Shown one piece after another: positions 2,203 to 20,255 of a stretch of 20,329 bases of DNA. Every line of letters starts with the position of its first letter. Within the stretch, counting starts at the first letter, position 1. This DNA comes from Candidatus Nanohaloarchaea archaeon. GTDB taxonomy: Archaea > Nanohalarchaeota > Nanosalinia > Nanosalinales > Nanosalinaceae. Made by a program: the position numbers and the translations under genes. The notes beneath the pieces are model-generated. The model did no database searches, was not told where the DNA came from, and worked only from the letters and a program-made list of their open reading frames with translations. Location: positions 1 to 20,329 of the forward strand of contig JBLGBN010000016.1 of NCBI GenBank assembly GCA_047617745.1, in the 5' to 3' direction.

Positions 2203-2709
2203 TTACACTCGCCGGCATGAAGGTGTATTATCAATGACAAGCGGACGATCTCCTGAGAATCCGGTCAGATCCATAGCTAGTATCTTGACAAGACCAACTC
2301 TGGGTATCGAAAAAGCCGTTTTGCCGTATATTTGGTCGGGAGTTATATTCTTCTCGAAATCATGCTGTCCCCGAGTATTGTCCCCCTTGGTTTCTACATG
2401 GCTGTCAGTCTTGAGTATAACCCGGTGAATGATCGGTATATTCACTTCAGGGCTTTCCGCATCATACACTATTACATCCCCTTCTTCAATATTCTCAAAG
2501 CTCTCACCCTCCACAATAATCACATCCCCCACATTATATTCCGGGTACATAGAGCAAGAAACAACTGTTACAACAGGTTTCTCCGTATCCAGGACAACTC
2601 CCGTCGTCTGAATTATTCCAAACGCAAGTATCAGGGCGACCGCAAAAAAGTAGAACTCGTTGAAAGCCCTTGACTCCTTAACTCTCTGCCACTGATCTCG
2701 GAGATCCAT
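2203..2709 (-). CDS. sec11: Signal peptidase I, archaeal/ER type (S26B, Sec11-like)
   Basis: N-terminal TM helix, then VVSCSMYP (catalytic Ser), GDVIIV, PIIHRV (catalytic His) and TKGDN. Confidence 0.93.
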   Translation of the reverse strand: MDLRDQWQRVKESRAFNEFYFFAVALILAFGIIQTTGVVLDTEKPVVTVVSCSMYPEYNVGDVIIVEGESFENIEEGDVIVYDAESPEVNIPIIHRVILKTDSHVETKGDNTRGQHDFEKNITPDQIYGKTAFSIPRVGLVKILAMDLTGFSGDRPLVIDNTPSCRRV

Positions 2710-10612: not shown

Positions 10613-11443
10613 ATGGCACTAGTTCCTATAAAACCAGAACCAGGTAGCAACGCAGATTTCTACGGCAGCGGCAGCGATGGCGATCTTACCTGGAGCAGCA
10701 ACCAGGACAAAAGCGGGTTGTTCCAACCCCAGAACCTTACTATAACCAGTGGAACATCTATCAACGTCCCTAACAGCGGTAAAGCTCTAGTTATATTCGC
10801 TCAAGAAAAAATAAGTATAGAAAGCAATGCCTCAATAAATGCCGCCGGAGTCGGGGCCAGTGGAGGAGCAGGAGGTTTCGGAGGCAACACCTATGACGGT
10901 TCATCTGGAGACCCTGGTGGCGACGGAGAATTAAACGGGCCTGGAGGAAGCAACGGGGGAAGCGGATCGATATCAGCCCCTACCGGGCTGGAAATTGTAA
11001 AACTGCTTGGATTATCCATAGAAATAGCTCAAAACAGCCTCCCTGCAGGCGCCGGAGGAGGTGGAGGAAGCGGCGGAGTAAACACCGATCAATACTCTGC
11101 AGGTCATGGCGACGGTGGTGACGGTGGTGACGGAGGCGGCCTAGTACTTTTGGTCGCTCCCACAGTAGAGGTAGCTGGGACAGCCCAGATCGATGTATCA
11201 GGTGCTGATGGACAAGATGGACAGGATGGTTCCAGTGGCGCGAATCTCTCTCCAGGTGGAGATGGGGGTGGCGGTGGAGCAGGTGGTGTTTTCGGGGCCG
11301 TAGGAAGCAGCATAACTATAAGCGGCTCTATAAATACTTCAGGTGGTGCTGGTGGAGAGGGCGGAACGGGCTATAACGGCGGTGATGATGGATTCTCAGG
11401 AGGAAGTGGAGCTGAAGGGATTAAATCGATAAATACAATATAA
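10613..11443 (+). CDS. Glycine-rich (polyglycine-II/beta-strand) adhesin-like protein resembling viral tail tip proteins
   Basis: N-terminal FYGSGSDGDLT...NLTITSG; hydrophobic strands (LVIFAQEKISI, LVLLVAPTVEV, VFGAVGSSITISGSI) alternate with GGxGGxGG and GAGGGGGSGG runs; no signal peptide or TM helix. Confidence 0.75.
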   Translation: MALVPIKPEPGSNADFYGSGSDGDLTWSSNQDKSGLFQPQNLTITSGTSINVPNSGKALVIFAQEKISIESNASINAAGVGASGGAGGFGGNTYDGSSGDPGGDGELNGPGGSNGGSGSISAPTGLEIVKLLGLSIEIAQNSLPAGAGGGGGSGGVNTDQYSAGHGDGGDGGDGGGLVLLVAPTVEVAGTAQIDVSGADGQDGQDGSSGANLSPGGDGGGGGAGGVFGAVGSSITISGSINTSGGAGGEGGTGYNGGDDGFSGGSGAEGIKSINTI

Positions 11444-17246: not shown

Positions 17247-18563
17247 TTAACTGATATCGATTGTTCTTCCGTTCTCGCTGATGAAGACGTCTTCTTCAAG
17301 CGTATATCCTTCCTCTCTTGCAAGCTCTACATAGCTTCCAAGTTTCTGGATGTTACCGTGGGAAGGAACGATGTTGTCCGGATCGAGAATCTGGATGAAG
17401 TCTCTATGATCTTCTTTCCTTGCGTGTCCGGATGTGTGGACGTCTTTGTAAAGTCTTACTCCCTGTTCCTTCATCTTCTTCTCAAGGCTGTACCTGTTAG
17501 CCTGGGTGAGAGGTGTTGGGATGACCTGTGAGGAGAAGATTACATGGTCACCTTCCCTGAACTTGAACGGGTATTCCTGTGAAGCGATCTTGTCCATCTG
17601 TGCTCCTGGCTCTCCCTGGTTCCCTGTCGCGACGACAAGCCATTCCTCTCGGGCTCCTTCGACCTTCTCCATTACTTCCGCACATTCGTCGTAGTAGGAA
17701 ACTACTTCGACATCGGAGAGATCAATTAATCCCAGTTCCTGCGCTGCTTCTGCATACTCTCTAAGAGATCTTCCGACAAAGGCAATCTTTCTCCTTCCAT
17801 CGTTTGCATCGATGATAGAGTTCAGTCTTGAGATCTGTGAAGAGAACGTTGTCATGATTACTGCGCCACCTGCCTCGTAACATGAGGTCATGACGTCTTC
17901 AAGTTCTACTTCGACAGATTTTTCCGATCTGCATCTTCCCTCGTCATCCACTCTCGTGGTTCCTGGGATCATCAGTTCGATTCCCTCTTCTCCTGCCTGT
18001 TTCATCTTCTCTATATCAGTTGTCTCTTCGATAACAGGTGAACGGTCGATCTTCATGTCATTTCCGTAGATTACTCCGCCTTCCGGGGTTTTTAACCAGG
18101 AAAGAGTTGCCTGTGGGATCGAGTGGTTGACGTGGATGAACTCAAGATCGAGCTCATCTGTGATCTCATACTCATCTCCTTTCTCTAATCCGATTACAGG
18201 GTTTTGAATGTTCTTGCGATCGTCTTCAATCTGTTTTTCAACGATCTTTTTCGTGTATGGCGTACAGATAATTGGGCAGTCATATGCACCAGCAAGCTTT
18301 GGGATGGCTCCAACGTGGTCAAGATGTCCATGCCCGATTACGATAGCACGTACATCTGCATCACTTTCGTACAGAACCTGGTCTCGGGGAATAGCCCCGG
18401 TTTCCAACGTCTGATTCGTTGTCATCTCGTTGACTTCTCCTTCTGCGTTGATTACTTCTTCCATCTCGTAGCCCATGTCGAAGATAACTGCTTCGCCATC
18501 GACCTCTACTGCTGTCATATTCCGGCCAACTTCTTCATAGCCGCCTAAAGTGTGTACTTTCAT
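17247..18563 (-). CDS. rnj: Archaeal ribonuclease J (beta-CASP metallo-beta-lactamase)
   Basis: GGYEEVGRNMTAV, FDMG, HGHLDHVG, HSIP, FSSQISR, TGNQGEPGA, VHTSGHA, PSHG; start set at ATG 18563. Confidence 0.96.
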   Translation of the reverse strand: MKVHTLGGYEEVGRNMTAVEVDGEAVIFDMGYEMEEVINAEGEVNEMTTNQTLETGAIPRDQVLYESDADVRAIVIGHGHLDHVGAIPKLAGAYDCPIICTPYTKKIVEKQIEDDRKNIQNPVIGLEKGDEYEITDELDLEFIHVNHSIPQATLSWLKTPEGGVIYGNDMKIDRSPVIEETTDIEKMKQAGEEGIELMIPGTTRVDDEGRCRSEKSVEVELEDVMTSCYEAGGAVIMTTFSSQISRLNSIIDANDGRRKIAFVGRSLREYAEAAQELGLIDLSDVEVVSYYDECAEVMEKVEGAREEWLVVATGNQGEPGAQMDKIASQEYPFKFREGDHVIFSSQVIPTPLTQANRYSLEKKMKEQGVRLYKDVHTSGHARKEDHRDFIQILDPDNIVPSHGNIQKLGSYVELAREEGYTLEEDVFISENGRTIDIS

Positions 18564-18813
18564 AGTGTTTATCACGTTTTAATAAAACAGAAAACGGGGC
18601 TGAATTTTATAAACCGATAAGCTTAAAGTGAGATCTAATCTTCCTTGCATTTATAGATCCTGAAGTTGGAACCTATACCTCATAATCTACCGGCAGTCGG
18701 CCACTTAACTATTAGAGGTCTAGAAAAGGCGGCAGCATGGCAAGGACTTGCGTAACAACATCCTGCAGAGCGGAGAATAGAAAAAGGTTGGAATCTCTAA
18801 AACATCAGATCAG

Positions 18814-19293
18814 CTAACTCACGTCAAACCATATATCGCCTTCAGCCGGGTTAGAAGGTTCGGAAGCCTGAACAAAAATATGAGAATTATCTACAGTATC
18901 GGCATCTAGACCACTACCACTTCCCTGCTGTATATTCGCAGCTGGAATATGCTGATCAGTAGAGCTCCAGATCGTGTTTAAGTTGTCATCCGTTATATCG
19001 CCGTGAATCTGTAAATTACCTGAGTTATCAATATCAAAATCAAGACTACTTCCCTGTCCTCCATAAAAAGAGAAACCGTCAGTTCTAACGTTTAAAGCCG
19101 AAGCAGGCAGTAAAGAAAGCGCTCCTAAACCAAGAGTCCCGGCACCTATCTTTTTCAGGAAACCACGCCTCGAAATATCCTGTTCGGAAGAAGATTCTTT
19201 CCTGTTTCTCTCCTCAACTATCTCACGAGCTTTCTCCTCAACCAATTCTTTCAGTTCAGATTCCGTGACTTCAATCTTGGTTTTCTCAGACAT
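18814..19293 (-). CDS. Twin-arginine (Tat) substrate with tail-fibre-like mature domain
   Basis: From ATG 19293: 40-aa charged helical n-region, SRRGFLK, h-region IGAGTLGLGALSLL, ASA cleavage site; mature part has QQGSGSGLDADTVD and C-terminal VQASEPSNPAEGDIWFD. Confidence 0.85.
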   Translation of the reverse strand: MSEKTKIEVTESELKELVEEKAREIVEERNRKESSSEQDISRRGFLKKIGAGTLGLGALSLLPASALNVRTDGFSFYGGQGSSLDFDIDNSGNLQIHGDITDDNLNTIWSSTDQHIPAANIQQGSGSGLDADTVDNSHIFVQASEPSNPAEGDIWFDVS

Positions 19294-19318
19294 TATAATA
19301 GATACTTGTGGAGACCTG

Positions 19319-19325
19319 CTTAAAA
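19319..19325 (-). promoter_or_regulatory. Putative TATA box for the Tat-substrate gene
   Basis: TTTTAAG 25 nt upstream of ATG 19293, the leaderless spacing seen elsewhere in the window. Confidence 0.55.
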
Positions 19326-19345
19326 TGTTCATTCCCTTATCTAGA

Positions 19346-20038
19346 CTAGTTCTCATATTTTCCCACTAGCCAGATACTTATCTGGTAGAGCCCCATAACC
19401 GGTATAGTAACCAGTATCTGGGTGACAACATCCGGAGGTGTGGAAACCGCTGCAAGAAGCAGAACAGTAACAAATGCGTAAGGCCTGTAATCCACCATCA
19501 TATCCTGGTCAATAACACCAGCAGTCGCCAGTACAACCGATACAACCGGCAGCTGGAACATTAAACCGGAGAAAGCTGAGAGTTTTACCGCAAAACCAAT
19601 AGTGTTCTGAAGCCCCCAAACTGCTGTAACCTCGGAAGCCCGGGTCATAGCTGTGAAGAAGCTGAGAGCTGATTTAACCACATACTGGTATGAAAACACT
19701 GCTCCACCTATGAAAAGCAGTAAAGAGAACGGCAAATAGTTTCTGATAACCCTGTACTCCCTGTTTTTCAGCCCGGGCTGAGCAAATTTCAGCATCTGGA
19801 AAGCTATAAACGGTAGAGCTAAGAAAAAACCGAACAAAACAGCGATAGTAATTCGAGTGTAGAAAACCTCGTAAGCCGTTAAGGCGTGGAGGCTGATCGC
19901 TAGATCGCTCTGTATCCAGTTAAGAATATTCGAGGAATAAAGAAAACCAGCCACTCCTGCCAAAGCCAGAACTAATACAGCGCTCTTGAGACGTGACTTC
20001 AGCTCAAGCAGGTGCTGTTCAATCGGCTGCTCAGTCAT
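19346..20038 (-). CDS. tatC: Twin-arginine translocase subunit TatC
   Basis: PIEQHLLELKSRL, FAQPGLKNRE, FQLPVV, STPPDVVTQ, GLYQISI; about 6 TM helices. Confidence 0.96.
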   Translation of the reverse strand: MTEQPIEQHLLELKSRLKSAVLVLALAGVAGFLYSSNILNWIQSDLAISLHALTAYEVFYTRITIAVLFGFFLALPFIAFQMLKFAQPGLKNREYRVIRNYLPFSLLLFIGGAVFSYQYVVKSALSFFTAMTRASEVTAVWGLQNTIGFAVKLSAFSGLMFQLPVVSVVLATAGVIDQDMMVDYRPYAFVTVLLLAAVSTPPDVVTQILVTIPVMGLYQISIWLVGKYEN

Positions 20039-20039
20039 A

Positions 20040-20255
20040 TTACTCCTCTTTTTTCCCTGTTTCTACATCAGTCATTTCCTCAGCGGTCTCGTCAAGTTCA
20101 TCCTTGACATCCTCCGCTTCCTTCATGGACTTGTTAAATTCCTTCTTCGACTCGCCTAACGAACGGGCAAGTTGAGGCAGTTTCTTCGGTCCGACAACTA
20201 AGGCAACTATAGCAGCCACTACAAGCAAAATCTCAGGTGGTCCAAGTAAAGCCAT
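20040..20255 (-). CDS. tatA: Twin-arginine translocase subunit TatA
   Basis: LGPPEILLV...VGPKKLPQLARSLGESKKEF; start set at ATG 20255; TTAATTAA box at 20278-20285. Confidence 0.96.
   Translation of the reverse strand: MALLGPPEILLVVAAIVALVVGPKKLPQLARSLGESKKEFNKSMKEAEDVKDELDETAEEMTDVETGKKEE

Follow-up and report, generated by a model that had tools for sequence, protein, structure and literature searches.

A Tat-leader protein family with virus tail-fibre modules beside tatAC in Nanohaloarchaea: candidate surface fibres

Introduction

At one end of a contig from a nanohaloarchaeon, tatA and tatC stand before a small gene whose product joins a Tat signal to motifs that had been read as those of virus tail fibres. 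The locus raises the question of what such a translocase would export, and for what use at the surface of a symbiont. The original prediction held that the product may be a viral mini-fibre, exported in the folded state and serving in host recognition or attachment.

Nanohaloarchaea are known to have LamG, PKD and pyocin-knob surface proteins, and their LamG proteins have been proposed for host attachment (PMC10266531; La Cono et al., 2020, PMC7443923). As for Tat, TatC alone has been reported for one cultured strain, where the pathway was termed likely inactive (Reva et al., 2023, PMC10266531). A table of the same paper gives tatC as transcribed (RPKM 654), and in the genome described there LamG locus tags are close to that of tatC (SVXNc_0793 versus 0798-0831). 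The patchy occurrence of tatC has been linked to salt adaptation in a preprint (10.1101/2022.05.20.492899).

Here we analyse the locus, the protein family to which its third gene belongs and the distribution of both in the phylum. Our results lead us to regard the product of this gene, P0001, as probably the stalk of a virus-derived surface fibre that is exported by the two-component TatAC and on which a tip is docked separately.

Results

Organization of the tat locus

The window, that is, the whole stretch of DNA analysed, is an entire contig of 20,329 bases from a source genome of 834 kb that is 89% complete. The contig ends 74 bases upstream of tatA, and the sequence beyond lies outside the window. 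The predicted tandem of tatA, tatC and a 159-aa gene is borne out by the ORF coordinates and by Pfam matches for tatA and tatC; the three genes lie on the minus strand and are followed by RNase J. The features are as follows.

20040..20255, minus strand: tatA, 71 aa (Pfam PF02416, E 3e-13)
19346..20038, minus strand: tatC, 230 aa, twin-arginine binding loop F-x2-PGL-x3-E intact (Pfam PF00902, E 1e-51)
18814..19293, minus strand: P0001, a Tat substrate of 159 aa and one of 10 paralogs, of the fibre-stalk ("carrier") type (translation, family profile)
19174..19293, minus strand: P0001 n-region, long and charged, residues 1-40, family-typical (median RR position 49 in 150 representatives)
19096..19173, minus strand: P0001 Tat signal core, residues 41-66, with SRRGFLK, glycine-rich h-region and A-S-A cleavage site (translation)
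18817..19095, minus strand: the 93 aa of the P0001 mature stalk, modelled as successive short beta strands (AlphaFold2, single chain)
18817..18930, minus strand: P0001 C-terminal GSGSGLDADTVD and PxxPxxGDIW half-motif, to which a separate tip may dock (viral matches)
17247..18566, minus strand: RNase J, housekeeping flank of the tat locus (Pfam PF22505)
10613..11443, plus strand: glycine-rich protein without a signal, candidate passenger tip (profile match to HrrHF2_490)

With both tatA and tatC in the window, and equivalents of the twin-arginine site in place, the translocase looks complete. Of the 13 tatC loci examined, 12 have tatA next to tatC, a contig end truncating one of these, and the only exception is rich in N; the TatC loop F-x2-PGL-x3-E is likewise present in 12 of 13. 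Its F-to-E distance, judged from motif spacing only, is that of F94/E103, which are named as twin-arginine binding residues (PMC13673990).

In several relatives RNase J also comes directly or closely after tatC, and their tat neighbourhoods hold toxin-antitoxin-like and sulfur-metabolism-like genes as well. The 128 bases at 18613-18741 of the window correspond to about 930 bases in the genome G001, where a further carrier gene and a partner gene are encoded; no remnant of these extra genes was found in the 240-base spacer here. At 2203-2709 (minus strand) the window encodes a protein whose motifs are like those of archaeal type I signal peptidases.

P0001 carries a Tat leader and a beta-rich stalk

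The signal ascribed to P0001 proved to be as textbook as described, with SRRGFLK at residues 41-47, an uncharged h-region and the cleavage site ASA at residues 64-66, so that the pattern S-R-R-x-F-L-K of a Tat substrate is complete. The other motifs quoted for the protein, IDNSGNL, NTIWSS, QQGSGSGLDADTVD at residues 122-135 and the terminal VQASEPSNPAEGDIWFDVS, were each found in its translation too. The protein has no cysteine, hence no lipobox, and does not class as a Tat lipoprotein. The hydropathy of its h-region is borderline, at 1.53 against a transmembrane level of 1.6 over 19 residues. Measured against 20 shuffles of all six-frame ORFs of the genome, [STDN]RRxF[LM]K occurs 10 times (0.3 in shuffles), GxGxGLxAD 3 times (0.05) and PxxPxxG[DE][ILVM]W twice (0).

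An alternative upstream ATG would give a 180-aa frame. Its 21 extra codons, as read by eye from the aligned DNA, show 4 amino-acid changes and 1 silent change relative to the sister genome, which makes the 159-aa start the likelier one. The ortholog of P0001 in G001 is 91% identical, with a dN/dS of 0.094 at a dS of 0.44 (0.075 for the leader); the gene is therefore maintained under purifying selection.

P0001 has no family in Pfam. As a single AlphaFold2 chain the stalk is modelled as short strands (pLDDT 82, pTM 0.42), and fold searches with it gave no significant match, either among viral models (BFVD, best E 0.1) or in the PDB (Foldseek best E 2.1, VIA-align Z 3.0). Below the threshold there were tail, spike and receptor-binding proteins, which were not counted as matches, and matches in the ESM Atlas, all below 0.9, are leads only. 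We also considered a coiled coil in the family leader, which seemed likely on inspection but is unsupported (heptad score 0.463 against 0.461 for shuffled sequences, higher in 53 of 145). The idea of a viral mini-fibre holds for a fibre-stalk-like protein with a virus-matching end, and needs correction in that P0001 has no receptor-binding domain of its own and looks like a stalk made to take a separate tip.

A leader family dominates the Tat candidates of the genome

Ten proteins of this genome share the leader, in which a long, charged n-region is succeeded by RRxF[LM]K, then by an h-region rich in glycine and by a small-x-small site. The family accounts for about 10 of the 17 Tat candidates of the genome; the candidate list itself has 9 family members and 7 others, one frameshifted member having been filtered out. 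On the question raised beforehand, whether Tat substrates are mostly paralogs of P0001, the majority of candidates are in the family and about 7 are outside it. After the leader, members have short stalk motifs and then highly varied ends (glycine-rich, beta-propeller and others). Their genes are placed singly amid housekeeping genes.

Several observations accompany the family in this and other genomes. Two paralogs, G000:C3:39509-40457 and G000:C11:25510-26227, are each split by a single frameshift, one at a short G run and the other in an A run, which may be decay, slippage or assembly error. Outside the family, G000:C2:25760-28696 encodes two tandem Tat lipoprotein candidates with LAGC. The genome G069, of about 1 Mb, has 29 family matches. 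Small acidic ORFs resembling n-regions lie directly upstream of carriers (L073:2-187, L072:2765-2950, L066:6054-6275, L058:228-407 (G012)) and are possible chaperones or split leaders. Small Sec-signal proteins occur near or upstream of carriers (L041:2223-2570, L042:1413-1997, L054:400-729 and 1797-2132); they have an HP(L/F)S(Q/E) motif and a C-terminal EICxGxxC and are candidate surface anchors. Carriers also often adjoin genes that were named by eye as sulfate adenylyltransferase or PAPS reductase-like and as phosphodiesterase/sulfatase-like (L051, L052, L064, L066, L067, L017).

A 28-member profile retrieved 509 representatives (50% clustering) at E ≤ 0.001 and 293 at E ≤ 1e-10. Among the matches listed, those closely related to the family come from public records with the label Nanohaloarchaea. 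A scan of species genomes with P0003 gave, among the at least 24 loci listed, leader-spanning matches in 2 nanohaloarchaeal records and 1 archaeon. The RR pair is present in all of the top 150 representatives, partly by construction of the profile, and a cleavage-type small-x-small site lies about 25 residues past it in 125 of the 150. Transmembrane-level hydropathy, by the measure used for P0001, is reached by 4 of the 150 h-regions, and none of the 150 has a lipobox or a C-terminal hydrophobic segment, so that no membrane anchor is evident.

These features bear on where the fibres would end up, and they could be explained by fibres shed into the medium once the leader is cut, acting as soluble lectins, as matrix or as blockers of halovirus receptors on the host. 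The frequent cleavage site, the weak h-region and the missing lipobox and C-terminal anchor all agree with shedding, as does the kinship of the tips with halovirus tail proteins. Host-range adhesins, on the other hand, work when attached to the particle (PMC8651126), and it is for attachment that LamG proteins are proposed in the papers on cultured nanohaloarchaea; we thus consider shedding unlikely. Another explanation is that the Tat signal stays uncut and, like that of Rieske proteins, serves as a membrane anchor for the trimer while the n-region remains cytoplasmic. It would account for the missing anchor, uncleaved Tat anchors are known (PMC13673990), and the n-region is long and conserved, as the dN/dS of the leader indicates. 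Set against this, few h-regions reach the required hydropathy, that of P0001 being borderline, and the (-3,-1) cleavage site is conserved, which renders an uncut anchor quite unlikely. We retain a cleaved leader with retention at the surface as the preferred reading.

The ends of family members are related to halovirus tail proteins

Over its last 37 residues P0001 shares 59% identity with the C-terminus of a protein of 226 aa from the halovirus-like tail region L084, and 17 of 37 positions are identical to the end of HrrHF2_525 of HF2, which is located between the tape measure and baseplate J. In P0001 itself the virus match is confined to these residues, and PHROG matches are weak (E 0.003-0.16). 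Other members reach further: P0143 matches VP1 of HF2 (E 9e-24), P0145 matches HrrHF2_520 (E 6e-27), the paralog on C6 matches a PHROG tail family (E 1e-25), and 25 of 151 proteins match HrrHF2_525. A tblastn search of annotated phages with three related proteins gave no match. Outside the family it is thus with virus tail proteins, as the HF2, L084 and PHROG matches show, and not with non-viral globular proteins, that the closest similarity was found.

The alignment between the 226-aa viral protein and the C3 paralog starts at the predicted cleavage site (E 0.003), as if the leader had been swapped in for a viral N-terminal domain. Two pattern searches did not find the family leader in viral contigs. 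With respect to GSGSGLDAD, which had been put forward as a tail-fibre motif, the matches listed also include many bacterial, Patescibacteria and Nanoarchaeota records; the motif alone is therefore no proof of viral origin. The motif also occurs in an 841-aa protein of this genome that has no Tat leader (G000:C1:27120-29645).

The kinship with virus proteins could also mean that the P0001 gene is the edge or a remnant of a provirus or tailocin locus. The virus-like modules and the contig end just upstream of tatA fit such an origin. So does an observation in the single-contig genome G023, where two leader-less homologs of the 226-aa fibre protein (43% and 38%; L148:9064-11362) lie in the tat island upstream of tatA, possibly as recent captures. 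However, terminase, portal and baseplate J were found in none of the 5 genomes searched, four of them single-contig, although positive controls were detected; the paralogs stand singly among housekeeping genes, the leader was not seen in viral contigs with either pattern, and the sole integrase-family gene of the genome is on another contig. This origin is largely refuted and we hold it to be highly improbable. In the same vein, P0001 does not class as a virus tail fibre by membership (virion module, tail attachment), nor as part of a tailocin or contractile injection system, as judged on baseplate J in the 5 genomes.

A fibre motif split between carriers and triple-repeat partners

Some family members hold a whole motif, in which PxxPxxGxxW is followed by one YxDG/NGxxW hairpin, either directly or around an inserted propeller; the fused members seen have one hairpin copy each. 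Others, the carriers, end right after PxxPxxGDIW. Among 14 half-motif carriers, counted by hand from fetched loci only, a triple-repeat gene without a signal comes directly next in 10 and after one gene in 1, and the 3 with no adjacent tip gene include P0001. Five of the partners have three (K/V)YWDGSxW-type repeats (type 1), the remainder a second triple repeat (type 2). All 5 type-1 adaptors found in the phylum stand behind a carrier, and all 5 were search seeds. Signal peptides are lacking in all 15 partner-type proteins checked, the Sec control being positive.

A complex of three carriers and one partner predicts just such a difference, with a single chain bearing three repeats where each fusion chain bears one. 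A 3:1 complex as proposed would therefore need export in the folded state, as Tat provides. When the carrier end, the adaptor and the profile of the glycine-rich proteins were each searched against PDB sequences, nothing relevant was returned. The partner was modelled with a mean pLDDT of 60 and low confidence in its glycine-rich middle, so that its viral fold matches are supportive at most.

The same pairing was seen in viruses. Viral contigs found by the repeat alone comprise 51 loci, with exactly three repeats in 41, two in 9 and five in 1. After subtraction of 2 duplicates and 3 loci without an upstream gene, the half-motif terminates 18 of 46 upstream genes, versus 8 of 298 other ORFs; the strict upstream half-motif is missing for 28 of the 46. 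Tested the other way round, the viral pairing is weak: of 6 half-motif-ending genes with a visible next gene, 2 precede at least two repeats. Within L097-L147, several phage contigs have stand-alone proteins of 44-90 aa that amount to little more than the triple hairpin, possibly fibre caps.

By its end, P0001 is a carrier of the type-1 class. Searches of this genome (89% complete) and of G001 gave no triple-repeat gene of type 1, and the one type-2 tip gene of this genome is on another contig. P0001 may act in trans, use a tip gene that was not assembled, or act bare. Regarding the glycine-rich gene at 10613-11443, its signal-less product matches HrrHF2_490 by profile (probability 96%, E 2.5e-9, 71 columns); direct BLASTP gave nothing, and no gp38 match was found among PDB sequences. 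HrrHF2_490 is hypothetical in its record and, from position and composition, is probably the HF2 adhesin; it agrees with what Liu et al. (2021, PMC8651126) describe as the host-range adhesin. The 10613-11443 product is 60% identical to its G001 ortholog, versus 91% for P0001, as expected of a variable tip on conserved stalks. It also has a homolog with 44% identity within the G069 tat island, which comes after a gene with a different ending; the product is therefore probably not the tip of P0001 itself, and is probably a candidate tip of the same system for another carrier.

The family co-occurs with tatC and is often linked to it

Among 70 genomes of the phylum, the family was found in 25 and tatC in 20: both in 18, tatC only in 2, the family only in 7 and neither in 43. 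At E ≤ 1e-5 the family is thus present in 18 of 20 tatC-positive versus 7 of 50 tatC-negative genomes, two of the latter 7 being at least 92% complete; at E ≤ 1e-10 the figures are 16 of 20 versus 6 of 50. The genomes are kin and many are incomplete, so these counts are not independent, and since the profile is dominated by the leader, weak matches may be other Tat substrates. All 8 single-contig genomes are concordant (4 with both, 4 with neither), and family and tatC vary jointly within the genera g2, g17, g20 and g21.

Of the 18 genomes with both, 12 have a family member at most 6 kb from tatC, and 5 of the 12 (G008, G049, G058, G064, G069) contributed no sequence to the profile. The member beside tatC varies from genome to genome; the link of tatAC is therefore to the family, and at this level the anticipated conservation of linkage is confirmed. 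Three results named beforehand as counting against the proposal, namely non-viral relatives, unconserved linkage and the edge of a provirus, were looked for, and none was obtained.

Alternatively, the link could be incidental: an insertion hotspot beside tat would gather fibre genes as dispensable cargo, with Tat serving mainly lipoproteins or other substrates. Such an account finds some agreement in the roughly 7 other Tat candidates, two with a lipobox, in the toxin-antitoxin-like and sulfur-metabolism-like genes near tat in relatives, in the 6 of 18 genomes that are unlinked and in the two frameshifted paralogs here. The covariation of family and tatC within four genera and in all single-contig genomes argues against it, as does the purifying selection on P0001, and we regard an incidental link as very unlikely.

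Discussion

The findings presented here allow a model of Tat-exported fibres. A Tat leader specific to the family has been joined to tail-fibre modules common to haloviruses; the joining is seen in the sequence, and its direction was presumably from virus to cell. Three chains would fold in the cytoplasm into a beta-rich trimer. Members either bear their own binding domain (glycine-rich, beta-propeller or VP1-like) or end at PxxPxxGDIW, and in the latter case the stalk would bind one signal-less tip, whose three hairpin repeats would complete the three chain ends. TatAC would export the folded assembly and carry the tip along without a signal, as known from Tat hitchhiking; the leader would then be cut at A-x-A, the fibre would be retained at the surface through some partner, and variable tips would recognise the surface of the host in the manner of hafunavirus adhesins. 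Given their homology to virus adhesins and the published LamG proposals, the fibres may serve in host attachment or recognition. A wider version, which we put forward tentatively as less than an even prospect, is that Tat is kept or lost together with a modular attachment kit, acquired from viruses that infect the symbionts' hosts, of leader-bearing trimeric stalks and interchangeable adhesins that dock 3:1 by the triple-hairpin adaptor and are exported folded.

The closest parallel is found in Hafunaviridae. DADTVDG and a terminal PxxPxxGDIW are shared with HF2, in which the gene that carries them (HrrHF2_525) precedes a distinct glycine-rich gene (520). VP1 and HrrHF2_520 are matched by family members, and HrrHF2_490 by the glycine-rich gene of the window. 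Unlike the virus genes, the nanohaloarchaeal family is cellular, dispersed and multi-copy, its Tat leader takes the place of the virion-attachment domain, and no capsid or baseplate genes were found with it. The fibre tip of T-even phages provides a second parallel, in which the trimeric fibre gp37 bears the monomeric glycine-rich adhesin gp38 in a 3:1 ratio. One adhesin on a trimeric fibre is also what we propose, with similarly glycine-rich tips, but no gp38 match was seen in solved structures and docking here would proceed via three short hairpin repeats. Phage-like fibres have been put to use by cells in trimeric autotransporter adhesins, tailocins and contractile injection systems; our case differs from these in that no baseplate J gene was found in the 5 nanohaloarchaeal genomes, and to our knowledge a beta-barrel anchor is not to be expected in an archaeon.

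In line with the proposed export, signal-less subunits of hydrogenases and arsenite oxidase cross the membrane by Tat hitchhiking (PMC13673990), and the tip would do so bound to a signal-bearing stalk. The cargo would differ in being a structural adhesin instead of a cofactor enzyme, with three signals per complex. Our results also differ from the account of Reva et al. (PMC10266531), which reports TatC alone and, in the text available, describes no Tat carrier family or export route. The accessible portions of PMC10443357 and PMC11329633 have nothing on the arrangement, and the fibre-like antennae in the latter belong to the host. A literature search, with most subscription papers outside its scope, found no published description of it. 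The parts are known; the Tat-leader fibre arrangement is real, and we regard it as a variant of virus-derived surface adhesins.

Together, these findings bear on how DPANN symbionts choose and hold their hosts, for which they supply a defined gene family and a plausible way out of the cell for those lectin-like proteins that lack a signal and have been suspected of a part in attachment. They offer a reason for the patchy occurrence of Tat in the phylum, earlier read as inactivity or as salt adaptation, and the pairing of half-motif and triple repeat is also present in many unannotated phage tail loci. Host specificity becomes testable, by comparing tip repertoire with host range and tip binding with halovirus receptors. 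If the wider version of the model is true, the host range of the symbiont would be set by tip swapping, as in hafunaviruses, and symbiont and virus would compete for the receptors of the same host.
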